From a virus (Duplodnaviria > Caudoviricetes), in IMG/VR virus record IMGVR_UViG_3300049479_000276, positions 1 to 58,510 of that record: a DNA stretch of 58,510 nucleotides; one strand, given 5' to 3'. Below the pieces are notes generated by a model, which worked only from the letters and a program-made list of their open reading frames with translations, was not told the DNA's origin and did no database searches. Both the position numbers and the translations under genes were made by a program. Positions 41,104-55,318 of the stretch are shown piece after piece; position 1 is the first letter of the stretch; each line of letters starts with the position of its first letter.

Positions 41104-41130
41104 GGTCAGTTTTACGTCATGACCAGGACG
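41104..41130 (-). ncRNA. Leader pseudoknot family 1, copy 1
   Basis: cgtc-ct-ggtca-t-gacg-taaaac-tgacc. Confidence 0.75.
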
Positions 41131-41155
41131 GCGACCCTGCAGGGTTTGTGCCCGC

Positions 41156-41593
41156 TCAGTCTACCTTGTCATCGAGGGTAGTGGCAATCCCCTCGAGGCC
41201 TGCCGTGGTAACCGTAACCAGATTACTGACATAGTCGGTCAGCGCTTGGAGCTTGGCATCAAGAGCTTCGGTGTATTTCATCAAGGTTTCAACAGCCTCG
41301 ATGATTTCTTGGTGAGAAGGAACAATGCCATAGACATCATTCTCTTTCAAGACTTCAGGGTTGTTGTTCTTTTGATACCGCCGACAATCATCGTTAGCGG
41401 CATACATAGCTTCTTGATACAGATCCAAGACAGTCTTGAAGTCTGCATTACCGACCCCTTCGCTGCTCATGATGTTACAAGTATCAAGATAAAGCTTGGC
41501 AGCAAGCCGAAGATTCTTCTGAAAGAATTCGGTGTACTGTTCAGTACTGAGACCGTAGGTGTCAATTGCCATGATCGGATAAAACAGATTCAC
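41156..41593 (-). CDS. Hypothetical protein
   Basis: 145-aa ORF. Confidence 0.55.
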   Translation of the reverse strand: MNLFYPIMAIDTYGLSTEQYTEFFQKNLRLAAKLYLDTCNIMSSEGVGNADFKTVLDLYQEAMYAANDDCRRYQKNNNPEVLKENDVYGIVPSHQEIIEAVETLMKYTEALDAKLQALTDYVSNLVTVTTAGLEGIATTLDDKVD

Positions 41594-41987
41594 AAGCTGA
41601 GCGTAGCGCAGTCAAGATAAAGTTTTCTTGACCTTTCTGACCAAGGTTGGTCCAGTATTGAAGATCAGGATCTTTTTCATCCCATTCAATGTGAATGGTC
41701 ATAGTTCCATTTTCTTCTTCAATACATTCCAAATTCAATTTGGATATCCAACTTGGATCATTGAATGCCTTGGCTGTAATGCGTCTGCTGATTGCATCTT
41801 CTGCATGCATCTTAAGAACTTCTTCTGCATAGACTTCGTAGTCCATCTTAAGTTCAGCGCCAAGCTTGACTAATTCCCAATGTAAATCATTGGGAATATC
41901 AAGATGATAACTGTAATGTTCGGGAGGTTTCATGGGTTGATTTGCAACAAGTTGACGTGCGTACTCAAGAATGTCATCGGTCATCAA
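41562..41987 (-). CDS. Hypothetical protein
   Basis: 141-aa ORF. Confidence 0.5.
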   Translation of the reverse strand: MMTDDILEYARQLVANQPMKPPEHYSYHLDIPNDLHWELVKLGAELKMDYEVYAEEVLKMHAEDAISRRITAKAFNDPSWISKLNLECIEEENGTMTIHIEWDEKDPDLQYWTNLGQKGQENFILTALRSACESVLSDHGN

Positions 41988-42156
41988 GCTGCTCCTCTAC
42001 AAGCGGCAGTGATGGGCCAAGGGTTTCAAGCCAACACAACATGCACCAATTGCCTTCGTGGCCTTCGATGTCGCTGCTGATGTAGTGCTTGTGCGTGCCG
42101 TGCTTGGGGCAGACGACCTGCTTTTGAGAAATCTTGAGATTTAGAAAGTCAGTCAT
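41974..42156 (-). CDS. Small Zn-ribbon protein
   Basis: VCPKHG...WCMLCW. Confidence 0.5.
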   Translation of the reverse strand: MTDFLNLKISQKQVVCPKHGTHKHYISSDIEGHEGNWCMLCWLETLGPSLPLVEEQLDDR

Positions 42157-42520
42157 TGAGCTGCTCAAGTGCGCGATGGATGATGTCGATGTCTTCAGGC
42201 TCAAGCTCCATGTGTCCGTCCAATGTAAAGCCGGCTTTGAGAAGCACTTGCATAGCCTGCTCTTTTAAGCTCGGCGGTTTGGGACGGCGGGCGGCGCGGA
42301 GTTTGTAGGTGTCCACATTCAGATCAGGATCCTGTAACCACTCACAGCACGCCTCCAGCTCCTGGTCGGCGCCCCAGCGGGCGCCTTGGGTAGCAATGTC
42401 CTGTAGCTTGGTAGTAGTGACAGTGACTATTACACACGGAGATAGCGCGGAAAACTCGGGCGCTTCTCGCCACTCTTGCACTAGCTCCGGCGGTGGGGTG
42501 ATGAGATGTTGTTGTGTCAT
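42149..42520 (-). CDS. Hypothetical cyanophage protein
   Basis: ITPPPELVQEW...WGADQELEACCEWL...RRPKPPSLKEQA. Confidence 0.6.
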   Translation of the reverse strand: MTQQHLITPPPELVQEWREAPEFSALSPCVIVTVTTTKLQDIATQGARWGADQELEACCEWLQDPDLNVDTYKLRAARRPKPPSLKEQAMQVLLKAGFTLDGHMELEPEDIDIIHRALEQLND

Positions 42521-43461
42521 TTTTTGATTGCAGCTTTAAGCTGAGGCAAAGCAATGCCAGGGAACGGAACATAGGACGCATCCATCATATTGAAGAACAA
42601 GTCCCATGCATGGTGCTGCGTGAACACTTCGTTAGGTTTGTAGTTCCGCCAATGACTTAGCGGAGCTTGTGCTCCTTGATTGGTATACAACAAAACAAAG
42701 CGTCCATCGCTAATTGCATCCTTGGGTGGTGCATAGAACCATGCCACACACTTCTCAGGTGTGCCACTGGGGCTGGCGTTACGTGCATCTGTGCGCTTGC
42801 AGAGGAGTTCACGATACTTGTTGAACCAGCTCAGGTGGATGCACCATGGTCTAAATCCCTCGATTTCTTCTTGGAAAAAAGATAGGTTACTGAGCTGACG
42901 TTGAAACGACCCACATGAGCACGTAGGCTTGCCAAACATTGCGTCTTGTTTGGCGCCACTGTCCAGCTCAGAGTCCATATCAATCGGCCGATCCGCAAGC
43001 CGCATCCCGTCCGGCGCAACCAAATAGCCAATGTCCGTTTGGTCAGATTGAAGGATGGCGGTGAGCTTACCGGAGTCTGATACGTGTATAAATTTGTCTG
43101 CCCAGTGAGCTTGTAGTTTTGCATTGGAAGTCAGGTGTCCGAGTGCGTGTGTGTAGTTCCAGCCCTTAAACATAATGTAAGCATTGTTGTGCCATACACT
43201 AGGGCCACGATAATTAGGACCAAGGTAAGAAAAGAAATCTTTGAGACGGTTGGTGTAGTTAGTAAAGGCTAGCTTAATCAGCTCCCGTGGGTAAGTCTGC
43301 TCAGTACCATCACGACGCACCACGAGACAATTGTCATCTCGCAGATAAATGCCAGCAATTTCGGTGTCATCAAAATCCTGGAACGCACGACCGATGTTAG
43401 TCCGTGTGTAGATCAGAGACTGAGCAGCATTAAGTTCTTGTTGTTGAAGTTGAGTTGTCAT
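42517..43461 (-). CDS. SWIM zinc-finger protein
   Basis: PTCSCGSF...RPWCIHL. Confidence 0.65.
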   Translation of the reverse strand: MTTQLQQQELNAAQSLIYTRTNIGRAFQDFDDTEIAGIYLRDDNCLVVRRDGTEQTYPRELIKLAFTNYTNRLKDFFSYLGPNYRGPSVWHNNAYIMFKGWNYTHALGHLTSNAKLQAHWADKFIHVSDSGKLTAILQSDQTDIGYLVAPDGMRLADRPIDMDSELDSGAKQDAMFGKPTCSCGSFQRQLSNLSFFQEEIEGFRPWCIHLSWFNKYRELLCKRTDARNASPSGTPEKCVAWFYAPPKDAISDGRFVLLYTNQGAQAPLSHWRNYKPNEVFTQHHAWDLFFNMMDASYVPFPGIALPQLKAAIKK

Positions 43462-43479
43462 GATTGGAATGGTGCGATG

Positions 43480-43683
43480 TTAGATGCAGTGATCCTGATC
43501 AGTTGATCGGTACCGCTTGGCTTGCCGCTCGATCTCTCGATCCCTGGCCTGCTTGCCCATCTTATACGATCCCCAGAGCACTGCACCCCAGGCAGCGGGG
43601 TTTGGTATGCAAAACGCAATAGTGCCAACGACAAGAGCAGTGGCAGCACCGACTTTAAGCGCAGCTTTGTCTTCAGGTTTCAT
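43480..43683 (-). CDS. Small membrane protein
   Basis: Hydrophobic VGAATALVVGTIAFCI. Confidence 0.45.
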   Translation of the reverse strand: MKPEDKAALKVGAATALVVGTIAFCIPNPAAWGAVLWGSYKMGKQARDREIERQAKRYRSTDQDHCI

Positions 43684-43762
43684 TTTGTAATCCTTAACAC
43701 ATTCAGTGGAATCAAGTCAAGTTTAAATGGAGACGTAGAATAAATTCAGTCAATTAAATAAC

Positions 43763-43981
43763 ATGTTGAAATTTGAAATGTCGCCAGAGGATATGTTCTG
43801 GCAAGAAAAGATGATACGTAGCATCAATGACTGCAGTTCTATGAGTGAGCTAAAGGAAATGGCAACCTTGTTAACCAAGATTGCCACGCAACGTCAAATT
43901 GCAATCAAAGGATTAGTAGCTGATGCTATGGAGCTTATGCAAGAGAATTACTCACACAAGCTCCCAGCTATCAAAGACTAA
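43763..43981 (+). CDS. Second NblA-like helical protein
   Basis: EMSPEDMFWQEKMIRSINDCSSMSELKEMATLLTK...RQ; own TAGAAT box; opposite strand to neighbours. Confidence 0.5.
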   Translation: MLKFEMSPEDMFWQEKMIRSINDCSSMSELKEMATLLTKIATQRQIAIKGLVADAMELMQENYSHKLPAIKD

Positions 43982-44998
43982 TCAGAGGCTGTCATCCTCA
44001 CCAGTCAGGGGATCACGGGCAGGCAATGCCTTCACATCAACTGTGTCCATGGTCCGAGAGACAGGAAGGATCTCAACTCCTTCTTTGATTCCGTATGCAC
44101 CGCCAAGCTTTTGTGCATCTTGACGTGCATGTTGATTGATGTAATCACTGAACATGTCCTGGTACTTCCAGGTTGATTCACGATCCTCATCAGGGATGCT
44201 GAGGCGATTAAGCGAAGTAATCGCTTCATCTTGAGAACTGTAATCAGGAATCTCAAACGATTCGATTGCACAGATCTCTACGTTGTTGGCGCCACGCATT
44301 TCGTTGGCAAGCACGGGTACAAACACCGTAGTAGCATAAAACTTCTCGTTAAATGCCAAGGGTACTTCGGAGTCCAGTGCTTTGCTCAGGCACTTAGACA
44401 TTTCTTTTTCGTACAGCTTGACTTTGTCGCTGACGTCAGTGCCGTTAAGACCCTTGAGTGTAAGCACCATGGGGATCTTGTGAGCACGCTTGTTGTCTTC
44501 GGTCAAGACATAGACAAGATACTTGGTGCGTACGCTGTACTTACGCTTGTACATCTCGCCTTTACTGTTGGCAAGATCAGCGGCCAGCTTGTCGTTATCA
44601 AAAGCGGCCTTGACATCTGGATCCTCAAAGGTTCCAATCGTCTGCCTCATCCCTGTGGTTTCCTCAACCATGAGGGGAGAACGTAAAAGGATTTGCAAGC
44701 GAGGCTCAGTGAAATTGAGTCCTTCTTCAATTGAAGTGTTGGGAGCCATACCAAAAGTTTGCTTGTAGTTCCAGATAACTGAACCCTTAGCAAATTGATC
44801 TTCAGTGGCGTTCCATCCACAAGTGTCAAGGTCTGACTTCCGCACGAACCAACCTCGGATCTTGGACTTGTTGAGAGGTTGAATTGTGACGAGATTCTGG
44901 TATCCGGACACAAACTTTTTATCTTGAAAAAGTTTGAAAGAATCCAGCCCACGTGTTGCAAGTGCAGAGGTTTTCTTAGTAGCCATTGAGGCAGTCAT
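43982..44998 (-). CDS. Cyanobacterial/phage protein (DUF5895-like)
   Basis: PRLQILLRSPL...RTKYLVYVL.EDNKRAHKIPMVLTLKG; adjacent to ssb. Confidence 0.55.
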   Translation of the reverse strand: MTASMATKKTSALATRGLDSFKLFQDKKFVSGYQNLVTIQPLNKSKIRGWFVRKSDLDTCGWNATEDQFAKGSVIWNYKQTFGMAPNTSIEEGLNFTEPRLQILLRSPLMVEETTGMRQTIGTFEDPDVKAAFDNDKLAADLANSKGEMYKRKYSVRTKYLVYVLTEDNKRAHKIPMVLTLKGLNGTDVSDKVKLYEKEMSKCLSKALDSEVPLAFNEKFYATTVFVPVLANEMRGANNVEICAIESFEIPDYSSQDEAITSLNRLSIPDEDRESTWKYQDMFSDYINQHARQDAQKLGGAYGIKEGVEILPVSRTMDTVDVKALPARDPLTGEDDSL

Positions 44999-45019
44999 GG
45001 TTGTTTCGTAGTCAAGGAC

Positions 45020-45047
45020 AGGCAGTTTAACGTCGTACCAGAGGACG
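45020..45047 (-). ncRNA. Leader pseudoknot family 1, copy 2
   Basis: cgtc-ctct-ggta-c-gacg-ttaaac-tgcct. Confidence 0.7.
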
Positions 45048-45052
45048 GGAAG

Positions 45053-45307
45053 TTACGCTACTTCCGCAAGGTCATCTTGCTGGAGAGGCAACTGAATAGC
45101 TGGCTCCCCCTGATACAAAGCAAGATACTGCTTTGAGATTTCGTACATTCGCTCAATGATGTTCAGCTCAAGATGACCAACACCACGCATGAAATTAATG
45201 AACTCATCAACAATTTCATCAGTGCCAATGCACTGGAACTCATGCAGCACCTTTCGTTTACCATCCTCATAGAGAAGAGTAAACTGATCTTCGGGTTGAG
45301 TTGACAT
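45053..45307 (-). CDS. Hypothetical protein
   Basis: HEF...DEIVDEFINFMRGVG. Confidence 0.55.
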   Translation of the reverse strand: MSTQPEDQFTLLYEDGKRKVLHEFQCIGTDEIVDEFINFMRGVGHLELNIIERMYEISKQYLALYQGEPAIQLPLQQDDLAEVA

Positions 45308-46122
45308 CAGAATGGAACTTCGTCGTTGAATTCAGGCGCGTTGCCGTATTGACCGGGGAGATCAGGCAGACCAGTATTGGGGCCTGCATTCCAGGGATCG
45401 CTGGACTCCTCAACGGTCTTGCCACCCCATAGGCTAGCAACATTCTCTGTGGATGCCACAGTTGTTTGGGATGTCACTTGTTTTGCTTGAGACTCACTCG
45501 TTTTGGGAGCCAGTGTCATCTGCACAAGCTGGAGCTTGGTGACGCTACGGCGCTGGTTGGTTTCTTTATCTGTCCAGGCATCCGTCACAATCCTGGCACG
45601 AATAGTAAGACCAGTGCCTTTACGAGTCATGTTCACAAGAAGCTCAGCTTGATTGAACTTATCTTGTGCCGTGTTAATTGCGTAGAAGTTAAAGAGATCA
45701 GCTTGGTTGCGCCCAGTGTTTACCGAGAGTGTTTGATTGGCAATCATCAAACCATCTGCAGTTGTCTTAAAGGCGCGTGCATCTGTTTGATCAATGTCTT
45801 TGATGCAACGACCCGTCAAGATGACGTCGTTGAAGACAGGGAATGCTTCAGTAACTTGAGCAACAACTCCTCCATTGAGCGAGTACGTCTTTGATTCGAG
45901 ATCAAACCGTAGCTTGGAGCCGTGAATGTAGATGCGGTTTCCTTTGCTGAGGGATCGGAAAGCATCTCCGGTTTTCCCGTAAACATTGAGGACAAGAACT
46001 GTGGGAGCTTTGTTGCCAACCGGCGGAAGAGTTACTTCAGCGCAGTAGTTAAATGTGGTTGAGCTGGTGTATACCTGACGAGGGTTCTCGTTCAGGATTG
46101 CGCAAACATCAACGTAATTCAT
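45307..46122 (-). CDS. ssb: Single-stranded DNA-binding protein with tandem OB folds
   Basis: NDVILTGR...RKGTGLTIRARIVTDAWTDKETNQRRS; acidic tail FNDEVPF. Confidence 0.85.
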   Translation of the reverse strand: MNYVDVCAILNENPRQVYTSSTTFNYCAEVTLPPVGNKAPTVLVLNVYGKTGDAFRSLSKGNRIYIHGSKLRFDLESKTYSLNGGVVAQVTEAFPVFNDVILTGRCIKDIDQTDARAFKTTADGLMIANQTLSVNTGRNQADLFNFYAINTAQDKFNQAELLVNMTRKGTGLTIRARIVTDAWTDKETNQRRSVTKLQLVQMTLAPKTSESQAKQVTSQTTVASTENVASLWGGKTVEESSDPWNAGPNTGLPDLPGQYGNAPEFNDEVPF

Positions 46123-46143
46123 TGGATCAAAAGGATTGTGTTA

Positions 46144-46170
46144 AAGCAGTTTAACGTCATGCTTAGGACG
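46144..46170 (-). ncRNA. Leader pseudoknot family 1, copy 3
   Basis: cgtc-ct-aagca-t-gacg-ttaaac-tgctt. Confidence 0.75.
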
Positions 46171-46214
46171 AACTCCTAATCATCTCCTAATTTTTTCCAA
46201 ATTAGGAGATGGAT

Positions 46215-46544
46215 TCACTCAACCAAAAAACAAACTTCTGCTTGTTTTCCGCTGCGTGTAGGACGGCGATAGTTTTTTGCTGTAACAGGATCAATACGTG
46301 TTTCTAATACTCCCTTAAGAAATAGTTCCCTAACACGTGCTGAGCTTGTTGTATGTGGCATACCAGTGATTACTTCTATTTCATCACGAGTTAAACCATT
46401 AGGAGCTTCACGTAAAACATTGATAATTCGTTTTTGTAGATTATTGATTTTTGGAGCAATGCTCTCGGCTGCCTCTTGGGACGTGCTGCTTTCTCGCACA
46501 TGAGGCGGCGTACCGCCAAACAAATCGTATTGAAAAGAATCCAT
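46215..46544 (-). CDS. Winged-HTH protein
   Basis: TSQEAAESI...GLTRDEIE..TGM.HTTSSARVREL...RPTRSGKQA. Confidence 0.7.
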   Translation of the reverse strand: MDSFQYDLFGGTPPHVRESSTSQEAAESIAPKINNLQKRIINVLREAPNGLTRDEIEVITGMPHTTSSARVRELFLKGVLETRIDPVTAKNYRRPTRSGKQAEVCFLVE

Positions 46545-46549
46545 GGTGT

Positions 46550-48584: not shown

Positions 48585-48646
48585 GGATCAGATGAAAGAC
48601 AGATCGATGATATCTGATTTCACCTGATCCGCAAGTACCTACGGAA

Positions 48647-49411
48647 TCATTTCTGATTCTTCTTGCTATACCCTACAAACTTGCCTTCTTTCTTGCGTTG
48701 TGTGATAGCAGCCATGGCATCGGACCCAGCACGTTGGGATCCATGGACTAGGAGTGCAAACGGTTTGTCTCCCAAACAATGGCTGTCGTCATGGTCAATG
48801 GATAGCCCACGATCTGCTGCTTCCTCTTCTGTGTATACCACATGAGCAACCCGCCGGTACACCTCAGGATACTTGTCGATCAAGTAGTCAAGCGTACCAC
48901 CGTGCGATGCAGTGAGATAAAAGTTGCCAGGAATCATGTCGCGCAAGTTGTACCACATACCAAGAGACTTGGTATAGGCATAGAACTTTTGTTGCGGCCG
49001 ACCTTGGGCAACCATGATCCAAGCCTTCATGTAGTTCTCGGTCCAGAAATCACCAGACTCATGGATGCGAATCAGATCTTTGGCAGGCTGCATCAAGAGC
49101 GATAGGTCAATCAGATCACGCAATAGCATAGCCTGGTTCCCATTCATGTGAATGGTTTCACGTAGTAGATCCCAGTTGTGCCAGCGTGCTTCCCGTACGG
49201 TGGGACGTGTCTCCGCCATGGCAGCAAAGCAACGGTAGTCCTGTGTTGCCGTCACGCCTGTGTACTGAGGCAAGTCAGTGATCTGACCTGTGGTGCGGTC
49301 AGCAAAAGTCTTGCATACACCAGCATGAGGGCATGCGTACCCAGCAGGCAGATTGAAGATAAGGCGGTTCTTGAGCTTGCCGTTGCCGGTGGAAAACTTG
49401 AGGAGTTTCAT
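48647..49411 (-). CDS. Gene product 88-like (radical-SAM-like fold) protein
   Basis: GNGKL..FNLPAGYACP..C...CFA; RIHESGDF; FYAYTK. Confidence 0.75.
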   Translation of the reverse strand: MKLLKFSTGNGKLKNRLIFNLPAGYACPHAGVCKTFADRTTGQITDLPQYTGVTATQDYRCFAAMAETRPTVREARWHNWDLLRETIHMNGNQAMLLRDLIDLSLLMQPAKDLIRIHESGDFWTENYMKAWIMVAQGRPQQKFYAYTKSLGMWYNLRDMIPGNFYLTASHGGTLDYLIDKYPEVYRRVAHVVYTEEEAADRGLSIDHDDSHCLGDKPFALLVHGSQRAGSDAMAAITQRKKEGKFVGYSKKNQK

Positions 49412-49447
49412 GGTGTTGAGTTGAGCTGAATAATAAGAAAAACTAAT

Positions 49448-49474
49448 GAGTAGTTTAAGGACGTGCTCAGGTCC
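49448..49474 (-). ncRNA. Leader pseudoknot family 1, copy 4
   Basis: ggac-ct-gagca-c-gtcc-ttaaac-tactc (stem 1 covaried; one mismatch in stem 2). Confidence 0.65.
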
Positions 49475-49490
49475 ATCTTCCCGATCGGGA

Positions 49491-49826
49491 TTACTCTACT
49501 TGAGCAGAGCCCTTGAACTTTTCTCTGGATAAACGCAAAACAATTTGGTCACCAGAGTCTGGGGTATCATCTGGTCCTTGGTGGACCAGGATCTCCCATA
49601 TGTTTTGGTTGATCTTCATGATTGAATTACAATAACGAATCATCAAGAGTTCTTTGTCTTGCCCTGGCCTATAAGACAAGACTTTTTTGTGAATGCCAAG
49701 CGGTTCGTCTTCATTGTCTTTGGTGTAGGAGGCAACCCAATAGGAAGCTGTCTTTGTTTGTTGTTGAGTTAAACTAAATCCTTTCATTTCAGATGATAGA
49801 CAAACACCCGTTTTGATCAAGTCCAA
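49491..49826 (-). CDS. Hypothetical protein
   Basis: ORF in operon; start uncertain. Confidence 0.45.
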   Translation of the reverse strand: MDLIKTGVCLSSEMKGFSLTQQQTKTASYWVASYTKDNEDEPLGIHKKVLSYRPGQDKELLMIRYCNSIMKINQNIWEILVHQGPDDTPDSGDQIVLRLSREKFKGSAQVE

Positions 49827-50052
49827 CAGTTACATACTCAATCCATTCAGTAGATACGTTCCTGCTAGCGTTTTTAAACTCTTGCGTTTCTTTTTCAGGA
49901 TGCTTTGGAAGATATTCCATGGTTTCTAGATCTAAGTAATTACACTCAGCTTCGCCGAGGTAATAAGTATTGATTGCTTTTCGAGCTTCTTGTTGTTGTT
50001 CAAAGCTTAAACAAAAAGTCACAGGGATTTTAAAAGAGGCAAGCATGTTCAT
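49789..50052 (-). CDS. Hypothetical protein
   Basis: 87-aa ORF. Confidence 0.45.
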   Translation of the reverse strand: MNMLASFKIPVTFCLSFEQQQEARKAINTYYLGEAECNYLDLETMEYLPKHPEKETQEFKNASRNVSTEWIEYVTVGLDQNGCLSII

Positions 50053-50128
50053 GGTGTTGTGTTACATGGTGAACGACATCATATACATCAATCGTCATAT
50101 ACTTTCCGTATCAATAGATACAGAACTC

Positions 50129-50281
50129 ATGACGTTAACGTATCGTGGTTGCAAATACAACCAAGAGGATCAGGCCAAAAAGGACAGAGCATGGTGGAAC
50201 TTAGCACACCGTCCATGGCTTTGCCTGACCTACCGTAACATTTGCTACTTTCCTTACGTCACTGGAGGACAAATCAAATGA
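50129..50281 (+). CDS. DUF4278-like small protein
   Basis: MTLTYRGCKY...CLTYRNICY (two LTYR(G)xxY motifs). Confidence 0.6.
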   Translation: MTLTYRGCKYNQEDQAKKDRAWWNLAHRPWLCLTYRNICYFPYVTGGQIK

Positions 50282-50413
50282 ACAAGGCACTGATCGTCTA
50301 CCTGGTGGACAAACGGAAAAAGCTGGCACGCAAGGATGTGGAGTCCAAGCATGCCACCACTGAATTAAAAAAACAAAGCGCCGCGACCTTCTGATCGCCA
50401 CTTATTTAATTCA

Positions 50414-51064
50414 TCAGTTTTCTGCAAAGGCTGCTTCTCCGATGATGGGGAATTCTTTGCAGAAGATTCTTTTGATTGCTTCTGCAATTTCTCTGTGTTC
50501 GAGTTGGGTACTTGGGTCACAACGAACTTGTAGGTAATGGATGAATGAACGCAAGGTTCCGTTCATGTAAAGACGGGTGGGTGCAGCAAGAGGCAACACA
50601 AAACGCGCTGACTCTTTTGCAATGCCCTCGCTGATCATCTCTTGGTACAGATGCTTGGAATCTTCCAAGATTGTAGACATCCGTCTGTAGTAGTGAGCAA
50701 GCTTCTCACCGCCCAAGCGTTCTTTTAAATCATCGTTGGAGTTCTGTCTGTTCTTGTAGTCTTGACTACGCAGATGCGGCAGAGTAATGCTGCCTACATC
50801 AGAGACATCAGCATAACGCTGACTGAATTCCTGGAACGAGAAGGAGCGATGCCTAAGGATCTGTGGTGAGATTGCACGTGTTGTGTTGATTTCAACACAC
50901 ATGTTGGCCATCTCGTACGGCGACCAGTGCTGATGCTTAATCAGATAACGCAACAACTTGGGCGCAGTGTCCATGTTGTCTTGGTTCTTTGGTGCAGAGA
51001 CGCGTGCCATGCGCGTGATCATCTCCTCTGCATTGGGCGTTGCCCAAACAAGTTGTACATTCAT
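50414..51064 (-). CDS. thyX: Flavin-dependent thymidylate synthase
   Basis: HWSPYE, QILRHRSFSFQEFSQRY, KESARFVLP, TQLEHR. Confidence 0.95.
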   Translation of the reverse strand: MNVQLVWATPNAEEMITRMARVSAPKNQDNMDTAPKLLRYLIKHQHWSPYEMANMCVEINTTRAISPQILRHRSFSFQEFSQRYADVSDVGSITLPHLRSQDYKNRQNSNDDLKERLGGEKLAHYYRRMSTILEDSKHLYQEMISEGIAKESARFVLPLAAPTRLYMNGTLRSFIHYLQVRCDPSTQLEHREIAEAIKRIFCKEFPIIGEAAFAEN

Positions 51065-51260
51065 GAGCACTTAAAAAGGTAATGCCAACGTTGTGTTGTG
51101 TCAGTGTATCTGATCACATCACAGTTTTCATACTTGTCAACCACTTGAAACTTAGGTTGAGGTTTTGAGTCTTCTGTCATAAAGATTCCAAAAAACAATA
51201 GTGTAAATATTGATGCAATTAGCAGTGATGCTATAAAGTACTGCGAACGTTCCAATGGCG
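51061..51260 (-). CDS. Small membrane protein; start approximate
   Basis: TM helix then KFQVVDKYENCDVIRY. Confidence 0.45.
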
Positions 51261-51560
51261 TCATTCTCCTGGTACCAAGGTGTTCATTGATAGCTTATCA
51301 AGTTCTGATATAGGGCAGATACGCATCTTGGCATGTTCAGTAGGTGTCTTGAGATTATCCCACTGGATCACAAGAACTTTCATCTTGCGATTACTGTTGA
51401 GTAGCTTGGTCTTGATGTCAACTACTGTGCCATACCGCTGCTTGCGGTATTGAGCTATACGTTGACGAACATCAGCATGCCGCGTGTAGATGCCATGGGT
51501 CTTAGGACGTTCTGCTACGCGATCACCAATGGCGTAACGGTATTGAGGCTTGTTTGTCAT
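51261..51560 (-). CDS. Hypothetical (SH3-like) protein
   Basis: YAIGDRVAE...YGTVVD...LVIQWD. Confidence 0.5.
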   Translation of the reverse strand: MTNKPQYRYAIGDRVAERPKTHGIYTRHADVRQRIAQYRKQRYGTVVDIKTKLLNSNRKMKVLVIQWDNLKTPTEHAKMRICPISELDKLSMNTLVPGE

Positions 51561-51895
51561 TTGATGTTGCAGTAGGTTTTGTAATTGATGATCCTTGAGA
51601 TAGTACTACGATTCTGTTTGAACCGTATTGCTAGTTGTCCATTGCTTAATCCATCTTGATGTAACCGACGAATCGTTAAGACATCATTAACAGTCAGTGT
51701 TGAGTTGGGGCTTTCACATCCACGTAGTGGAGTGAAGTCCAAAGGCATGACTGGTTTTGATACCTCGTACCGTTCAACAGTACGAAACTTGCAGCCACAA
51801 TCAAGACATCTGCAATAGCGTTTGATTACATCATTAGCACGTTGATCTGTTGAAGTGACGCGTGTGTTCTTGCTGTTGCATGAACGACATTTCAT
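51557..51895 (-). CDS. NrdR-like Zn-ribbon plus HTH protein
   Basis: MKCRSCNSKNTRVTST...RYCRCLDCGCKFRTVE; C-terminal HTH. Confidence 0.65.
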   Translation of the reverse strand: MKCRSCNSKNTRVTSTDQRANDVIKRYCRCLDCGCKFRTVERYEVSKPVMPLDFTPLRGCESPNSTLTVNDVLTIRRLHQDGLSNGQLAIRFKQNRSTISRIINYKTYCNIK

Positions 51896-52200
51896 TCTTC
51901 AATAAAACGTTGAAGTTCTGCTGAGTTAAGTAGTTCAAGACAATTGATTGCACCCATAATTTTGAATGCATCAATGATCAATTCATGTTGTTTGTCAGGG
52001 AGTTGGTAGAAATCAAATAGACATTGCTCTGCTTGATCGAAGTCATCATAGCTACCCGTCAGCCGCTCGATTACAGAGCCAGGCATGTTATCAACTAAAG
52101 CTGTAACAATCACCTGTCTCACATGAGTCCAAGCTTGTTCTGGTATGAGTGCAATGGTTTTGTCAACAAGATCAAGATCAATGGATTGAGTTTCTGTCAT
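51892..52200 (-). CDS. Hypothetical protein
   Basis: 102-aa ORF. Confidence 0.5.
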   Translation of the reverse strand: MTETQSIDLDLVDKTIALIPEQAWTHVRQVIVTALVDNMPGSVIERLTGSYDDFDQAEQCLFDFYQLPDKQHELIIDAFKIMGAINCLELLNSAELQRFIEE

Positions 52201-52247
52201 AGAGAAAGACCCCTGCTTGCGCAGGGGCCGAACATTCCGCTAGCAGT

Positions 52248-52613
52248 TTAGGCTGCTTGGGCTTCAGTGTCTACCACCTGGTCCAACAGGCCGGACTCCT
52301 TGAGGCGATCCAGCATGTTGACCATAAGCGTGGCATGAGCTTGTGTCTGTTCCATAAATGCCCTGGCACGATCAGCACTCATGGTGTGTACCCGACCACA
52401 AGGCTCGATGTACTGCCATGACCCATCGGGTTGCGGCTGACCTTGTTCGATGGCAAGCTTCTCGGAGTTGTACTGATAACGCAGCTCAATGTTATGGTAA
52501 TCCCTGAGACCATTCTTATCAGTCCATGTAGCACCAAGGTTGTAGCGTTGATCTTCATCGCTAAATGCATGCAGTTCAGGGATGAGATGTTTGAAGGCAG
52601 CAAAGATTTGCAT
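52248..52613 (-). CDS. Hypothetical protein
   Basis: 121-aa ORF directly downstream of tRNA-Leu. Confidence 0.55.
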   Translation of the reverse strand: MQIFAAFKHLIPELHAFSDEDQRYNLGATWTDKNGLRDYHNIELRYQYNSEKLAIEQGQPQPDGSWQYIEPCGRVHTMSADRARAFMEQTQAHATLMVNMLDRLKESGLLDQVVDTEAQAA

Positions 52614-52633
52614 AGTGTTGTTTAAGGTTGGGT

Positions 52634-52719
52634 TGGTACAGACAGAGAGACTTGAACTCTCACGGCCAATGGCCTACGGATTTTAAGTCCGTTGCGTCTA
52701 CCTATTCCGCCATGTCTGC
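52634..52719 (-). tRNA. tRNA-Leu(UAA), intronless
   Basis: GCAGACA/TGTCTGT-A-CCA; anticodon arm acgga-ct-TAA-aa-tccgt; long variable arm; gagag-TTCAAGT-ctctc. Confidence 0.95.
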
Positions 52720-52929
52720 ATCACTTGGACTTACGCTTACGTCAATTGACGCATGCTGCCAAGTGTGGTCTTGAGGTAGGACTTCCATTCCGTAAGTCCA
52801 GCTATCATAGTCATCCTCATTACGAGGATCTTCTTCAATCAAGATGTACTGCGGTGAGTTGTCATGAATGTACTCACCAATGTTGGCCATGGCCATGGCA
52901 AGTAGTTGGTCATCGGTGTAGTCAGTCAT
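52702..52929 (-). CDS. Acidic hypothetical protein overlapping the tRNA 5' end
   Basis: 75-aa ORF. Confidence 0.45.
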   Translation of the reverse strand: MTDYTDDQLLAMAMANIGEYIHDNSPQYILIEEDPRNEDDYDSWTYGMEVLPQDHTWQHASIDVSVSPSDADMAE

Positions 52930-52980
52930 GGGTAGAAACCAGCCCTAGTATCGAGGCTAAGGCTGGTAAGCCGTGCGGAC

Positions 52981-54720
52981 TCAGCTACATGCTAGCTGTT
53001 TCTCGCGTTGTTGCAAGACCTCACGGAAAGCTTCTGTGTAAGCTTCACGTTGCTCTTCAGTGAGCCGCTGGTTAGCGACACCAGCGATCTGCTTGACAGA
53101 CATCAGGCCCATGTCAACCACCAGTTGAATGGTGAATGTGGGCTTACCATCAATCATGCATAGCACGATGAAGTGCTTACGCTTCTTGATGTCATCGGCA
53201 TAGTGTGATGCGGAGCCGACGCAGTTGCGTACGGCCTGACCCCACATAGCCAACTGATGTGTGTCAACAGGCTGGAAGAATGACCAGGTCTCACCATTGC
53301 GTGTAACCCTGATGGGTTCAGGGAATAAATCTTGACGCAATGATTCGTTGGGATTCTGGATCTTCCAGGACTCAGCTTGTACATAGTCGTGGAACTCATT
53401 GATGCGCCAACGCTTGGGAGGTGTTAGTTCTCCTTTGTGCTTGAGGATACGGATTGCCATGGAGAATGTGTCATTCAAATGAGGGAATGAATAACGCGCA
53501 TAGCCAACATCAGAATCTGTCCATATGCGCAAGCGGTCTGCCGTATCGTTTTCTTCAACATGTTTACGCATCATTTTGAAGAGTGATGCAACAGGCATAT
53601 GCTCACGCAACCAACTAATCAATATATCTTCGTTAGCATCAATACTGCGCACACGAACTTGATGAAGCTTAATAAAAAGAAGTTCGTTGTAATAAGTCTG
53701 GTAATAATCAAGCGGGCAATCAGGCCAGATGTTGTTAATCCAATCGATAGCATTAATAACCTGGAGGAAAGTATTCCAAGCTTGCTTAATTGGTTTCTGG
53801 TGATGGTTATTTGGATCGTTGTATTTTGTTATGCATTGATCAAGATTTGCTTGCAGAAGCTTCTTGATTGCAGGCTTGGCAATGATGTGAGCGATAGATG
53901 TCAATGTGCAGTAAATACTAGATGTCATTGTTGATCTGACATTAAACTCTTCTGCTGCTGCAACAAGTGCATCTACAGTAAAGCCATGCTTGGGATCAAT
54001 GAACTCAGACATCTGCCTTGGTAGTTCAATTACATCAAAGATATTTTTGCAACGAATGCGATCGAATAATCCACGGGAATCTTCCCACGTAGGAATGTTT
54101 TCACGTAGGCTTTTCTCAAATGCTTCTACAGCATTGTCTCTGATTTGATAACCTTTCTGGCAATAAAGATTTGATGCACGCCACTGGTAGCTACGGAACC
54201 CATATTCATCTTTAGTCTTGATATCTTCTTCTGTGATGTTCATGGAATAAGTAAAGATTTGGACACCACGCGTACCTTCGTGCTCGATGCACTTATCTTT
54301 GCTGGTCCAGATATGATGCGGTGCAGTCTTAGCAGCAGCCGCTGTGTTCTTGAATGCGTAGGCATGGCCATACACATACTCATTTGCTTGCTGCTTAGGA
54401 GGCAGCCATGCTGCGTACCACACCTGTTCGTAATGGTAGAGTATGGCAATAACTTTGAGACGAGCCTGCGGAGTTGCTACATCCACAGGCGTAGTAAACA
54501 CACGGTAACGATCAGGTGCTTTTTGCTGGTTGATGTGATCAATCGCAGCTTGCTGGTCTGACTCACGCACCACGTTGTGTGGGATGAGATGAGGGATGTC
54601 ACCCAGTGGATACTTAGACTTCTTAGTAGTTGTGGGCTTAGCTTTTTGAGCCAGCACTTTCAGTGTTGGATCGTAGGCAAGCAGTTCGGTTTGAAGGTTG
54701 GAAGGTAAAGCAAATTGCAT
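52981..54720 (-). CDS. PcfJ-like protein
   Basis: EFHDYV...QLAMWGQAVRNCVGS..YADDI...FTIQL...QIAGVAN. Confidence 0.8.
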   Translation of the reverse strand: MQFALPSNLQTELLAYDPTLKVLAQKAKPTTTKKSKYPLGDIPHLIPHNVVRESDQQAAIDHINQQKAPDRYRVFTTPVDVATPQARLKVIAILYHYEQVWYAAWLPPKQQANEYVYGHAYAFKNTAAAAKTAPHHIWTSKDKCIEHEGTRGVQIFTYSMNITEEDIKTKDEYGFRSYQWRASNLYCQKGYQIRDNAVEAFEKSLRENIPTWEDSRGLFDRIRCKNIFDVIELPRQMSEFIDPKHGFTVDALVAAAEEFNVRSTMTSSIYCTLTSIAHIIAKPAIKKLLQANLDQCITKYNDPNNHHQKPIKQAWNTFLQVINAIDWINNIWPDCPLDYYQTYYNELLFIKLHQVRVRSIDANEDILISWLREHMPVASLFKMMRKHVEENDTADRLRIWTDSDVGYARYSFPHLNDTFSMAIRILKHKGELTPPKRWRINEFHDYVQAESWKIQNPNESLRQDLFPEPIRVTRNGETWSFFQPVDTHQLAMWGQAVRNCVGSASHYADDIKKRKHFIVLCMIDGKPTFTIQLVVDMGLMSVKQIAGVANQRLTEEQREAYTEAFREVLQQREKQLACS

Positions 54721-54722
54721 GA

Positions 54723-55265
54723 TTAGTCTTGGGTTAAATTGATTTGATTGAGGCGAGCAAACTCACCAAAGTGTAACAAAGCAGCTTGGTTATAAGCCAA
54801 GGCTGCTTCTTCTTGTGTTGCGTACACACCAATGTGTTTGAATTGTTTATCAACACGAATGGATGCACGCCATCGACCAGTCGCTTTAATTAAACAGACA
54901 CCTTTGTAAATGCTGCTTGTGTTTTTGCGACCGTTACGATTATGTGAGTTTTGTAATTTAGTAGCCAATCGCAATGGTTTGTTGTTGTCTTTGTCATTGT
55001 GTATATGATCTACAAACATATCCCCTGGATCGGAGCCATGTTGTAGTGCATACACAATTCGATGAGCCATGTAATCCACCGCTTTACCTTGATACTTCCA
55101 GCGAACACGCCAGTAATGATCTTTAGTACGTTGAACACCTGCAACAGAGTTAGCTTTGGTCCAAGCACTTGGCGCTTTAAGCCAACGTAAACCACTAGGA
55201 GATGTTGTATCTAGATAAAACATTTGTTGCAAGTAGTCAACAGGTGGAAGTGGCCTAGGTTTCAT
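54723..55265 (-). mobile_element. HNH-AP2 homing endonuclease gene
   Basis: YMAHRIVY...VDHIHNDKDNN..LRLAT..QN..N...SSIYKGV...RWRASI...EEAALAYN. Confidence 0.9.
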
Positions 55266-55291
55266 TGCATGGTGTTGTGTGGTAGTTGGAA

Positions 55292-55318
55292 AGGCAGTTT
55301 AACGTCATGCCCAGGACG
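55292..55318 (-). ncRNA. Leader pseudoknot family 1, copy 5
   Basis: cgtc-ct-gggca-t-gacg-ttaaac-tgcct. Confidence 0.75.

Follow-up and report, generated by a model that had tools for sequence, protein, structure and literature searches.

A conserved pseudoknot between phage genes as a putative natural Watson-Crick-type branch of the coremin class

Five H-type pseudoknots on the minus strand of a freshwater cyanophage represent, as judged from sequence and pairing, a naturally occurring branch of the viral coremin RNAs that is of the Watson-Crick type. Coremin RNAs are small viral elements at which the 5'->3' exonuclease Xrn1 stalls; they also hold up scanning ribosomes and promote frameshifting. 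By analogy, the knot may act as a transcribed, sense-strand mechanical roadblock just 5' of selected cistrons, directed against decay by RNase J or against incoming ribosomes, a reading to which we give an even chance.

Results

The window, i.e. the whole stretch of 58,510 nucleotides that was analysed, was read directly, which confirmed five intergenic pseudoknots, all located within its replication-gene block. Their common form is S1(4)-CU-S2(5)-N-S1'(4)-U(U/A)AAAC-S2'(5). A preliminary description of this DNA had reported five minus-strand elements of this form, all of which were recovered both by direct reading and by a covariance model. The flipped stem 1 that it mentioned for one copy was also found, at 49448. 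Stem 2 of that copy contains a mismatch, and the 45020 copy has an extra loop base and a shorter helix. Likewise, the reported distances of 21 nt to an ATG in four copies and 36 nt in the fifth are correct, but the ATG at 55270 opens only a mini-ORF, and the long ORF starts 26 nt from the knot. The five leaders between knot and ATG are C/A-rich as previously stated (C+A 67%), poor in G (8 G in 120 nt) and unstructured, with predicted folding energies of 0 to -0.4 kcal/mol.

Table 1 Pseudoknots, leaders and downstream genes in the window.
Feature	Position	Strand	Description	Upstream stop	Downstream start	Covariance-model score
Pseudoknot copy 1	41104..41130	-	S1 CGUC/GACG, L1 CU, S2 GGUCA/UGACC, junction U, linker UAAAAC	25 nt (ORF 41156-41572)	ATG 41082, 21 nt	38.3 bits, E 6.1e-8
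Pseudoknot copy 2	45020..45047	-	Extra loop base (n=1); S2 GGUA/UGCC, 4 bp including one G.U	5 nt (ORF 45053-45307)	ATG 44998, 21 nt	23.5 bits, E 4.4e-4
Pseudoknot copy 3	46144..46170	-	S2 AAGCA/UGCUU	44 nt (ORF 46215-46544)	ssb ATG 46122, 21 nt	43.7 bits, E 2.3e-9
Pseudoknot copy 4	49448..49474	-	S1 flipped, GGAC/GUCC; S2 GAGCA/UACUC with one C.A mismatch	16 nt (ORF 49491-49787)	ATG 49411, 36 nt	30.4 bits, E 6.8e-6
Pseudoknot copy 5	55292..55318	-	S2 GGGCA/UGCCU with one G.U pair	5 nt (ORF 55324-55476)	Mini-ORF ATG 55270, 21 nt; real start 55265, 26 nt	44.4 bits, E 1.5e-9
Leader, copy 1	41083..41103	-				
Leader, copy 2	44999-45019	-				
Leader, copy 3	46123-46143	-				
Leader, copy 4	49412-49447	-				
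Leader, copy 5	55271-55291	-				
37-aa ORF (MFES...)	40969..41082	-	Downstream of copy 1; conserved; PHROG search without match			
DUF5895 gene	43982..44998	-	Downstream of copy 2; Pfam PF19247, E 1.8e-12			
ssb (single-strand DNA-binding protein)	45307..46122	-	Downstream of copy 3; Pfam SSB, E 3.3e-9			
GP88-family gene	48647..49411	-	Downstream of copy 4; Pfam PF17338, E 1.3e-39; phrog_1392			
Mini-ORF, 2 codons	55262-55270	-	Downstream of copy 5; ATG, then CAA TGA			
HNH+AP2 endonuclease gene	54723-55265	-	Downstream of copy 5; start overlapped by mini-ORF			
PcfJ-like gene	52981-54720	-	After HNH+AP2 gene; begins ATGCAATTT			

The covariance model and the Rfam comparison suggested in the preliminary description were both carried out. 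Built from 124 instances and run over both strands of the window with filters off, the model returned exactly the five copies (44.4-23.5 bits, E 1.5e-9 to 4.4e-4), with the next-best match at E 0.31. The comparison with Rfam yielded no matching family. By itself, a permissive 12-mer scan did not reach significance (7 matches, shuffle mean 4.7), and the support beyond chance therefore comes from the full element.

In 125 distinct instances picked on S1 and linker sequence only, 95.6% of cells pair, which none of 500 shuffles reached. In a separate count, S2 pairs in 540 of 555 cells compared to 176-215 of 555 with shifted partners. Double-sided compensatory changes were observed at all 9 pairs of both stems in a second set, which was chosen for pairing, so that only its pair types count as evidence. 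G.U pairs occur on the sense strand only and are frequent at four S2 pairs (34, 20, 8 and 4 sequences). A relaxed scan with S1 unconstrained yielded CGUC/GACG (135), GGAC/GUCC (11), AGUC/GACU (6), UGUC/GACA (4), AGAC/GUCU (3), UGUG/CACA (3) and further types; the flipped S1 of copy 4 thus recurs elsewhere in 11 distinct instances. Within the linker, the first base is U, A or C and the second U or A, followed by an invariant AAACU, and bases 5' of stem 1 are unconserved. Because both stems show compensatory changes, G.U pairs are confined to the sense strand and the knot is also present in RdRp-encoding RNA-virus contigs, between the polymerase and coat genes, the sequence data support RNA-level structures.

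The same H-type pseudoknot was found in more than 116 viral-contig stretches as well as in unrelated phages and many bacterial MAG/prophage contigs from many phyla; S-EIV1, which infects Synechococcus, is among the phages with the element. Such a distribution supports the earlier suggestion that the knots form a widespread module, which in the clade of this phage travels with the downstream gene (see below).

The closest likeness is to coremin (xrRNA_C), which is known from beny-, cucumo- and many other RNA viruses (available parts of Dilweg et al. 2019, PMC6546385; Dilweg et al. 2023, PMC10520033). Its first hairpin stem is 4 bp long and identical to that of the knot (CGUC/GACG), as is the linker UUAAACU, and the coremin 20-mer (PMC10520033) and the knot have GUC..GACGUUAAACU in common. 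According to the available part of PMC6546385, coremin tolerates mutation of U13U14, with U14A being a natural variant, while A15-A17 and C18U19 are essential; these tolerant and essential positions match the variable (U/A/C, then U/A) and invariant (AAACU) positions of the knot. Both elements occur in tandem copies and are sited in 3' UTRs, in intergenic regions or just past ORFs. They differ in the loop, which has 8 nt in the knot (CU, five pairing bases and one further base) but reads YGAD or YGNNAD in coremin, the second base of the knot's loop being U. Unlike in coremin, five loop bases of the knot pair with the bases just past the linker in a Watson-Crick helix that covaries, and no second hairpin follows, although this hairpin (hp2) is strictly required for Xrn1 resistance in published coremin, as stated in the available text. 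The hosts also differ, namely DNA phages of bacteria for the knot and eukaryotic RNA viruses for coremin; the terms 'phage', 'bacteri' and 'RNase J' are absent from the available text of the coremin papers (PMC6546385, PMC10520033, PMC10321173).

A Watson-Crick-type coremin (xrRNA_WCC), in which a helix connects loop and linker, was obtained by selection (available part of Dilweg et al. 2023, PMC10321173). The same part states that the authors' survey for natural counterparts 'did not yield much' and describes a single one, from Sanxia picorna-like virus 5, which is separated by 8 nt from the preceding ORF, whereas the knot instances found here number hundreds. As far as described there, xrRNA_WCC and the knot are both H-type pseudoknots in which the loop of hairpin 1 pairs antiparallel with the 3' end of the linker and the A-rich linker is proposed to lie in the minor groove of stem 1. 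The second hairpin, absent from the knot, is dispensable in xrRNA_WCC for ribosome stalling in a frameshift assay. By the same source, S2 comprises 3 bp in xrRNA_WCC (loop bases 6-8 with linker bases 18-20) compared to 5 bp in the knot, where it begins one base later, past the linker C, and L1 is a single obligatory G instead of CU.

Coremin and knot also occupy equivalent sites. In one relative (L337), whose DNA polymerase is 64% identical to that of the window and whose SSB is homologous (E 7e-29), a canonical hexaloop coremin motif (loop CGAAAU) occupies the orthologous pol-ssb gap, 4 nt past the stop and 28 nt before the ATG. Head-scaffold genes in phages are preceded by either form, i.e. 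by the knot in L007, L043, L241, L184 and L163 and by canonical coremin in five of ten loci tested (L287, L296, L305, L314 and L353). Three mechanisms had been offered at the outset, ribosome recruitment or standby, a binding site for a regulator and a block to 5'->3' decay; the last gains most, since stem 1 and linker are those of coremin and coremin replaces the knot before ssb in the relative.

Two other classes of viral RNA show partial likeness. Flavivirus and tombus-/solemovirus xrRNAs, some of which are intergenic and ahead of coat-protein genes (summarized in PMC10520033), are also compact pseudoknotted viral RNAs, and they protect the RNA 3' of them by stopping a 5'->3' exonuclease; they are, however, larger (~45-70 nt) and form a ring around the 5' end, and no sequence likeness to the knot was found. 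Luteovirus-type frameshift pseudoknots (BWYV) resemble the knot in that S1 is short, L1 has 1-2 nt and begins with C, the junction is one base, and a loop of 6-7 nt, rich in A, crosses S1. The available part of PMC10321173 shows that the coremin authors themselves point to the likeness between coremin and these pseudoknots, which do not stall Xrn1. In contrast to them, the knot has no slippery site or overlapping frame and sits after stop codons.

Placement of the knot follows both neighbouring codons. The distance from stop to knot is below 5 nt in only 2 of 116 context clusters, exactly 5 nt in 24 and 6-10 nt in 36. From knot to ATG, it measures 19-26 nt in this phage clade and 27-51 nt in some lineages, and 48-81 nt was measured ahead of head-scaffold genes; 20-23 nt was found in 80 of 218 instances and 20-24 nt in 28 of the 116 clusters, and no frame rule was detected. 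The knot sits as close to both codons as ribosome footprints permit, no less than 5 nt past the stop and ~20 nt ahead of the start. A tally of these distances thus bears out a cluster at 20-24 nt but not a fixed 21 nt. The preliminary description had overlooked the lower limit of ~5 nt past the upstream stop, which is equally sharp, and the published coremin family.

In this clade, the knot stays with its downstream gene, be it ssb, GP88-like, PcfJ-like, DUF5895 or the 37-aa ORF. Homologs of ssb are preceded by the knot in 14 of 15 cases, behind 10 different upstream gene families, and the DNA polymerase gene has a knot after it only when ssb is next (4/12), losing it when another gene is inserted before ssb. 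The knot also precedes 14 of 17 GP88 homologs, lies directly upstream of the PcfJ-like gene in 11 of 15 relatives and precedes 9 of 13 homologs of the 37-aa ORF (automatic count, in which some misses are gene-start artefacts).

Such co-movement, together with the clustered distances and the G-poor, unstructured leaders, could also be explained by a translation-initiation module, the idea placed first in the preliminary description. The knot would then be a standby site or enhancer that docks on or attracts the 30S subunit or protein S1, always equally far upstream of a start lacking a Shine-Dalgarno (SD) sequence. In its favour, the distance is 19-21 nt in 14 ssb relatives even though their leaders differ, and in SD-led genes the knot abuts the SD, 10-14 nt from the ATG (7 clusters; e.g. 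L044 and L086). However, the spacing varies outside the clade and within it (20-51 nt for GP88 homologs, 22-81 nt for head-scaffold genes), and 51 of 116 clusters lack an ATG in the 60 nt past the knot. With the range in the clade and the short distances near the SD, this also leaves the earlier rule of exactly 21 nt for positioning the ribosome unsupported. Moreover, knots directly precede hammerhead and lariat-capping-like ribozymes as well as terminator-like hairpins, other 'first' genes of the window have CA-rich leaders but no knot, and coremin, as published, hinders the passage of ribosomes instead of helping it. The sharp lower bound of ~20 nt is equally expected if the knot only avoids the initiating ribosome. 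We therefore consider an initiation module unlikely.

We judge it just as unlikely that the knot is a 3'-end protector or boundary of the upstream RNA, blocking 3'->5' exonucleases after termination or after cuts by a ribozyme or a leader endonuclease. The contexts that fit such a role better are the hammerhead, terminators, U-runs and nearby stops. One contig (L265) carries, in four copies, a unit made up of an ORF, the knot, a type III hammerhead and a terminator, in which cleavage ~7 nt 3' of the knot would leave the knot plus ~7 nt as the 3' end of the product; the knot would then remain on the upstream RNA and could not protect the downstream one. Elsewhere, U-runs are found directly 3' of the knot in 24 of 259 instances and terminator-like hairpins in 8 (e.g. 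L078, L085 and L092). The knot lies 5-10 nt past a stop in 60 of 116 clusters, in 32 of them without a nearby ATG, and the natural Watson-Crick coremin, in the available part of its description, sits past the last ORF. On the other hand, the knot tracks the downstream and not the upstream gene family in the window's clade, three of the five window copies are 16, 25 and 44 nt from the stop, and the demonstrated polarity of coremin is against a 5'->3' enzyme.

An operator for a phage-encoded RNA-binding regulator is very improbable. In the translational operator of T4 gene 32, a pseudoknot and then an unstructured leader precede the SSB gene, and copy 3 shares this arrangement. The T4 pseudoknot is mentioned in PMC10690425. 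The ssb leader is unusually conserved among relatives, and loop and linker bases of the knot are strongly conserved, although these are the bases that coremin mutagenesis, in its available description, ties to the fold itself. In contrast to T4, a single type of knot stands before five or more unrelated genes here, and it occurs in very different viruses, including RNA-virus contigs that encode only polymerase and coat protein. Such scattered occurrence makes a shared virus-encoded partner implausible, and the SSB autoregulation suggested earlier is not upheld. Least probable of all is a DNA-level middle-gene promoter with the invariant (T/A)AAACT as -10-like element and the fixed spacing as a short leader: AAACT is consistent with the consensus TAnnnT, the element marks the start of particular genes and all copies lie in the replication-gene block, but the double-sided compensation and the one-strand G.U pairs have no place in it, the occurrence in RNA viruses and the unconserved bases upstream of stem 1 speak against it, and the promoter behaviour once named as a possible refutation found no backing in a sequence scan, with no two-hexamer match at any copy and fewer regional matches (13) than expected by chance (27.9).

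Discussion

A roadblock at the 5' border of the downstream cistron would thus be the reading that best joins coremin likeness and downstream-gene linkage. The folded knot would form a mechanical barrier that halts 5'->3' exonucleolytic decay begun upstream; RNase J is a cyanobacterial enzyme of this polarity. Ribosomes arriving from the upstream gene may be halted as well. RNA downstream of the knot would then persist longer than RNA upstream of it, and the downstream cistron would be translated on its own from the G-poor leader, which has no predicted structure. While the sequence data establish the fold, its likeness to coremin, the rules of placement and the link to downstream genes, we infer both an effect on expression and resistance to exonucleases in bacteria. 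Against the roadblock, the knot lacks two defining features of coremin, the loop consensus and the second hairpin. The L265 units, and the knots elsewhere that are flanked by terminator-like hairpins or U-runs or lie near a stop with no ATG close by, also speak against it, and none of the sequencing runs listed contains this DNA as RNA. Furthermore, coremin in a eukaryotic 5' UTR lowers translation, and it is therefore an assumption that the downstream gene gains on balance. Taken together, a coremin-like element is found here in a host domain that the coremin literature, in its available text, does not report, which suggests that phages may use the same roadblock as plant and fungal RNA viruses.

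Five compact pseudoknots in the replication-gene block

The window represents an entire IMG/VR virus record, a linear DNA of 58,510 bases with an estimated completeness of 74% (CheckV). Among named phages, only Synechococcus phage S-EIV1 is related at the DNA level, with 81.6% identity over 877 bases. Five intergenic elements, hereafter knots or copies 1-5 by rising coordinate, were read from the sequence of the replication-gene block. They precede a 37-aa MFES ORF, a DUF5895 gene, ssb, a GP88-family gene and an HNH+AP2 endonuclease gene with a PcfJ-like gene next to it. Each forms an H-type pseudoknot of 27-28 nt, in which the first strand of stem 1 (S1, 4 nt) is followed by CU, the first strand of the second helix (S2, 5 nt), one base, the stem 1 partner (S1', 4 nt), the linker U(U/A)AAAC and the S2 partner (S2', 5 nt). 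S1 is CGUC/GACG in four copies and GGAC/GUCC in one. The preliminary description had given this general layout correctly, but copy 2 departs from it through an extra loop base and an S2 of only 4 bp; similarly, the described flip of S1 in copy 4 is real, while the S2 of this copy contains a C.A mismatch. The leaders between the knots and their ATGs contain 8 G in their 120 nt overall and have no predicted structure. For copy 5, the ATG at 55270 had been taken as a gene start; it opens just ATG-CAA-TGA, with the start of the HNH+AP2 gene at 55265.

Several further features surround these elements. The HNH+AP2 endonuclease gene is apparently inserted right at the start of the PcfJ-like gene (54720-55270, minus strand). 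The string ATGCAAT occurs twice, at 55270, where the mini-ORF overlaps the endonuclease start, and at 54720, where the PcfJ-like protein begins (MQF...); in relatives, the knot lies immediately before the MQF gene. The 'first' minus-strand genes after a gap (e.g. at 57011, 56583, 55918, 49411 and 41082) have C/A-rich leaders with CAACUC repeats up to the ATG and without a Shine-Dalgarno sequence, and operon-internal genes overlap by ATGA. A second recurrent motif consists of CUGGGCA, ~35 nt including an inner hairpin, and GUAAGUCCCAG(G/A)U, and ends ~25-35 nt before ATGs; for two copies, an outer stem CUGGG/CCCAG is predicted. In the related contig L133, similar (A/G)(G/U)CCCAGG strings lie ahead of ATGs (L-numbers denote other contig stretches carrying the knot or canonical coremin, see below).

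Positions of the pseudoknots and of neighbouring features in the window and in other contigs
Feature	Sequence	Positions	Strand	Remark
Five knots	window	41104-41130, 45020-45047, 46144-46170, 49448-49474, 55292-55318	minus	sequence read, replication-gene block
tRNA gene	window	34790-34861	+	Rfam 70.4 bits
tRNA gene	window	52637-52719	-	Rfam 61.7 bits; similar to tRNA-Leu of Synechococcus phages B3 and B23
Second recurrent intergenic motif	window	~57012-57085, 55919-56005, 58070-58090, 56620-56650	-	early-gene block
Four knots	L265	2332, 2883, 4843, 5825	-	reverse-strand positions
Three tandem knots	L092	4620-4795	+	~75 nt apart
GIR1-like match	L011	2417-2614	+	small RNA-virus-like contig
GIR1-like match	L093	712-442	-	small RNA-virus-like contig
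GIR1-like match	L119	624-353	-	small RNA-virus-like contig
GIR1-like match	L020	901-1063	+	small RNA-virus-like contig

Both helices covary as RNA

A covariance model built from 124 instances and run over both strands of the window with filters off recovered exactly the five known sites (E 1.5e-9 to 4.4e-4), the next match having an E-value of 0.31. Exact-pattern scans in which only S1 and the linker were constrained returned at least 116 stretches from viral contigs and at least 120 from bacterial contigs (one genome per species). Although the viral scan left S2 unconstrained, 540 of 555 S2 cells are paired among the matches listed, and shifting the partner by 1-3 bases leaves only 176-215 of the 555 paired. 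All five S2 pairs are formed in 100 of 111 instances among these matches and in none of the shifted controls. Among the bacterial matches listed, S2 is fully paired in 58 of 129; the remaining 71, judged by look, are mostly chance-like and lie inside coding sequence. Once 125 distinct instances are aligned, 95.6% of the cells are paired, a value reached by 0 of 500 shuffles, and GC, AU, UA, CG and GU all occur at the three free S2 pairs; such instance counts are not phylogenetically independent, and clusters of similar context serve as a rough correction.

With S1 unconstrained, we next asked for no more than a paired S2 beside N(U/A)AAAC. CGUC/GACG still accounts for 135 of the 175 fully paired sequences, followed by GGAC/GUCC (11), AGUC/GACU (6), UGUC/GACA (4), UGUC/GACG (4), AGAC/GUCU (3), UGUG/CACA (3), GGUC/GACC (2), ACAC/GUGU (2) and several singles. 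A second alignment contains double-sided changes at all nine pairs; as it was chosen for pairing, only its pair types are evidence. On the sense strand, G.U is a frequent pair, found at four positions in 34, 20, 8 and 4 sequences; the opposite strand would carry an A.C mismatch there. Moreover, the element is present in contigs that encode RNA-dependent RNA polymerases. Thus, the compensation in both stems, the sense-strand G.U pairs and the occurrence in RNA viruses identify the knot as an RNA structure on the coding strand, in line with the covariation first noticed in the five copies. A possible extra pair, U12-A36, forms in only 88 of 125 sequences, and inspection of the L1 bases (the CU loop) against the S2 pairs by eye, rather than by count, gave no covariation pattern indicative of major-groove triples.

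Known RNA families were searched as well. In the window, only the two tRNAs pass the Rfam gathering threshold, and at E ≤ 10 two loci with three of the knots (L002 and L004) gave no match on a knot. No Rfam 15 family matches the knots, including preQ1, SAM-II and the xrRNA families. A preQ1-I-like riboswitch was rejected on this ground and by the variable junction base (U 140, A 19, C 15 and G 1 of 175), which differs even among the window copies. Recoding by -1 frameshifting or by readthrough was rejected too. Frameshifting would call for a slippery heptamer 5-9 nt upstream and for a protein extended in an overlapping -1 frame, and the flanks have no slippery pattern. Knots come after any of the three stop codons, their distances to the ATG obey no reading-frame rule, and in L091 and L084 the following frame opens only past the knot.

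The knot keeps a distance from stop and start codons

Placement was determined on 218 distinct instances, which were then grouped into 116 clusters of similar flanks. The distances to the stop codon and to the ATG both have a sharp lower limit. The knot starts at least 5 nt past the stop codon of the preceding ORF, with a shorter distance in only 2 of 116 clusters; the distance is exactly 5 nt in 24 clusters, and 6, 7, 8, 9 and 10 nt in 10, 8, 6, 8 and 4 clusters, respectively. On the other side, the next ATG follows at 20-24 nt in 28 of 116 clusters and at 10-14 nt in 7, where a Shine-Dalgarno sequence lies directly 3' of the knot; 51 clusters have no ATG within 60 nt. In the clade of the window, the knot-to-ATG distance is 19-21 nt for ssb homologs, 20-51 nt for GP88 homologs and 23-30 nt for PcfJ-like genes. 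The spacing of exactly 21 nt that had been proposed from the window is no fixed ruler but the common value of a bounded distribution. An RNA structure first encounters the entry channel of the ribosome five bases past the A-site codon, and the initiating subunit reaches upstream to ~20 bases before the start codon. In our reading, the knot is packed as tightly as terminating and initiating ribosomes permit.

In the clade of the window, the knot travels with the downstream gene

Genes were called on the knot-bearing strands of the window, of S-EIV1 and of 40 stretches of relatives, yielding 961 ORFs in 442 families; the calling is crude (longest ATG ORFs). A knot lies ahead of 14 of 15 SSB, 14 of 17 GP88-like, 11 of 15 PcfJ-like and 6 of 15 DUF5895 homologs, and of 9 of 13 copies of the 37-aa MFES ORF, several of the cases without a knot being artefacts in which the ORF was begun at an ATG within the knot. 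In S-EIV1, ssb and the DUF5895 homolog each have a knot in front of them. The upstream neighbour of ssb belongs to 10 different families across the 14 knot-bearing cases, and of 12 DNA polymerase genes only the 4 with ssb directly next have a knot behind them. In this clade, the knot and its leader thus form part of the unit of the downstream gene. In other phages, the gene for a head-scaffolding protein comes next after the knot (five contigs, L007, L043, L241, L184 and L163; two PHROG families), and tombus-like RNA-virus contigs show the order polymerase, knot, coat protein. The recurring theme is a boundary ahead of genes for proteins required in quantity.

Degenerate or variant knots, such as CGUCCUGGGAUGACGUUAAAAGCAUCC, which is without the junction base and has a longer linker, occupy the orthologous sites upstream of the DUF5895 homologs in L154 and L159 and of the PcfJ-like gene in S-EIV1 (L121), the latter with a UUAAAG linker.

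The knot resembles coremin

To our knowledge, the structure of coremin, a 20-nt viral RNA, is unsolved, and its pseudoknot has so far only been hypothesised, from mutagenesis and one natural Watson-Crick example. We arrived at this published Xrn1-resistant RNA of eukaryotic RNA viruses (xrRNA_C) by a full-text literature search with 10-mers of the motif itself; passages of PMC10520033 print a coremin sequence that contains GUC-CGAA-GAC-G-UUAAACUAC. As described in passages of PMC6546385 and PMC10520033, coremin begins with a hairpin of 3-4 bp (hp1) whose loop reads YGAD or YGNNAD; a conserved spacer leads to another hairpin (hp2), which counts only as structure, comprises at least 2 bp and is needed for Xrn1 resistance. 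The same passages report that coremin halts Xrn1 at the base preceding hp1, is a block to scanning ribosomes and is found in tandem. Loops of 7-8 nt are tolerated (passages of PMC10520033), and coremin stimulates -1 frameshifting (passages of PMC10321173). Within the spacer U13 U14 A15 A16 A17 C18 U19 A20 C21, the bases A15-A17, C18U19 and A20 are essential, while U13U14 are tolerant and a natural U14A is known (passages of PMC6546385). Selection yielded a Watson-Crick form, xrRNA_WCC, whose loop bases pair with the spacer end; one natural example lies 8 nt past the final ORF in a picorna-like virus, and nature otherwise 'did not yield much' (passages of PMC10321173).

S1 of the knot matches hp1 of coremin, a GUC/GAC stem with a pyrimidine-purine closing pair. 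The loops differ: that of the knot has 8 nt and starts with CU, whereas that of coremin starts with YG. Accordingly, the window loops (CUGGUCAU, CUCUGGUAC, CUAAGCAU, CUGAGCAC and CUGGGCAU) carry U instead of G at the second base; they keep the first Y and the penultimate A, and their final base is C in two of five. Spacer positions 13-19 of all five copies fit coremin (U[U/A]AAACU), whereas position 20, an essential A in coremin, is G in four copies, where it is paired in S2, and A in one. No change of AAACU occurs among 125 instances, and the two preceding positions vary (U/A/C at the first, U/A at the second). The mutational map of coremin thus appears to fit the phage knot closely. Unlike coremin, the knot is not followed by hp2, as the predicted folding energy of the 21-36 nt 3' of S2' is 0 to -0.4 kcal/mol and the bases where hp2 would begin instead pair back into the loop of hp1. 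This pairing corresponds to the antiparallel Watson-Crick helix of xrRNA_WCC between the hp1 loop and the 3' part of the spacer, with GC/AU/UA/CG/GU exchanges; S2 of the knot has 5 bp and its register lies one base further 3' than the published helix 6-8/18-20. Since the knot deviates in two defining features, loop and hp2, we file it as a variant and not as a plain member. Judged from sequence, the window elements are a natural and abundant form of the Watson-Crick coremin idea, not identical to it.

Phages also carry canonical coremin at comparable sites

A scan of viral contigs for canonical coremin (GUCCG, loop, GACGUUAAACU) returned at least 114 stretches. Among the matches listed, 31 of 80 stretches lie on contigs of at least 20 kb, some with identifiers that begin with digits we take to be those of IMG for isolate genomes, and their loops agree with those in print (CGAAAU 23, CGCAAU 19 and CGAA 14 of 113). 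The best hairpin in the hp2 position of canonical copies has a median energy of -2.0 kcal/mol on phage-size contigs (n=30) vs -3.4 kcal/mol on small contigs (n=45), and energies of -4 kcal/mol or below occur in 37% vs 44%.

A head-scaffolding protein is encoded by the next gene in 5 of the 10 phage-size canonical loci tested, the same niche as that of the knot. L337, a relative of the window (DNA polymerase 64% identical, SSB homologous at E 7e-29), has in its pol-ssb gap a canonical hexaloop coremin with the loop CGAAAU, 4 nt past the stop codon and 28 nt before the ATG. This loop was found to be Xrn1-resistant in a beet-virus context (passages of PMC10520033). The L337 site speaks most directly for knot and canonical coremin being interchangeable, as far as sequence can indicate. 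Furthermore, L111, a 73.7-kb viral contig, carries on its minus strand a knot followed 10 nt on by a canonical hexaloop with the loop CGAAAU, and this pair is present twice.

A proposed mechanical barrier and its alternatives

Taking structure, family likeness, placement rules and downstream linkage as established, we infer, at about even chances, that the knot mechanically bars the 5' edge of the downstream cistron. Exonucleolytic 5'->3' decay arriving from upstream would be stopped there, and ribosomes coming from the upstream gene may be halted as well. RNase J is present in cyanobacteria and Firmicutes, and other xrRNAs are able to block it. The 24 sequencing runs found for window positions 40900-49600 include no RNA runs. 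A weakness of the barrier reading is that the knot is without hp2, which the coremin papers find necessary for Xrn1 resistance. That the knot recruits ribosomes or serves as their standby site is a reading that we consider improbable.

That the knot caps or protects the 3' end of the upstream RNA was our former leading idea. It is favoured by L265, an 8-kb minus-strand locus from a bacterial genome collection with four ORFs and a knot 6-12 nt past each. A type III hammerhead ribozyme directly follows each knot, and a terminator-like hairpin with a U-run comes after it. Two of the hammerheads exceed the Rfam gathering score (50.7 and 49.7 bits), and the core is seen in three. Cleavage would occur ~7 nt after the knot, so that the knot remains on the upstream RNA. 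Terminator-like hairpins also follow the knot in three further contigs (L078, L085 and L092), a U-run follows directly in 24 of 259 instances, and in 32 of 116 clusters the knot is stop-proximal without a nearby ATG. The synteny test, which ties the knot to the downstream gene in the clade of the window, demoted this idea, and we now hold it to be unlikely. The hammerhead and terminator contexts nevertheless count against a purely 5' barrier; they keep a 3'-end role alive or suggest a barrier in both directions.

By analogy with T4 gene 32, the knot had also been proposed as an operator for a protein such as SSB; as it stands before five different genes in the window and also occurs in viruses without an SSB gene, this is very unlikely. 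A DNA promoter is more improbable still, since none of the 13 sigma-70-type matches (-35/-10 hexamers 16-18 bp apart; shuffle mean 27.9) within 40500-58510 lies at a knot.

The ribozyme and terminator neighbourhoods hold further observations. One L265 unit has a CCGAUGAG core variant. In L092, labelled as a giant-virus MAG, a CCCC...GGGG hairpin and a U-run follow two of three tandem knots, divergent ORFs flank the array and a 736-aa ORF lies downstream. Small RNA-virus-like contigs show the order polymerase, knot, GIR1-like match, jelly-roll coat protein (RdRP_3 E 1.9e-80 in L020; Viral_coat E 2.6e-19 and 3.7e-21). Rfam GIR1 is the lariat-capping branching ribozyme; the matches score 27.8-37.8 bits, below the gathering threshold of 100, and are full-length (model positions 1-201, E 7e-6 to 3e-3) with conserved core strings, and L035 probably has another after ~1290. 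A lariat-capping-like ribozyme before a viral coat gene would be remarkable, and we found none described in the papers searched, PMC13725137 among them.

Implications for phage gene expression

The motif class is already published, which removes the reading of the knot as an unknown family. Against the literature covered, what appears new is that the Watson-Crick form is widespread in nature and covaries openly in both helices, that DNA bacteriophages and prophage-like contigs from many bacterial phyla contain coremin-type elements of either form, and that these recur before ssb and head-scaffold genes. We found no description of the element in phages in the literature on phage pseudoknots, exoribonuclease-resistant RNAs, hammerhead and lariat-capping ribozymes and coremin; the supplements of PMC10690425, with ~10,000 candidate viral RNAs, may list the motif unnamed, which would limit this novelty.

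Tentatively, we see a possible cross-kingdom device of the coremin class, in which canonical and Watson-Crick knots of phages stall RNase J and thereby carve out stable, highly expressed messages. Its users would be S-EIV1-like cyanophages and siphophage-like phages of Firmicutes, Saccharibacteria and others, and the messages carved from polycistronic transcripts would be those for ssb, head scaffold and capsid. If true, these would be the first prokaryotic xrRNAs. Hundreds of natural sequences with loop-to-linker covariation give direct comparative support for the coremin fold and would then settle the long-debated pseudoknot. A 27-nt insulator or stabiliser working across domains would also be of use in synthetic biology. 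As the isolate S-EIV1 carries the element, the proposal is testable at the bench. If RNase J or ribosomes are blocked, the knot would explain how expression of single cistrons is raised in long operons without promoters or Shine-Dalgarno sequences.
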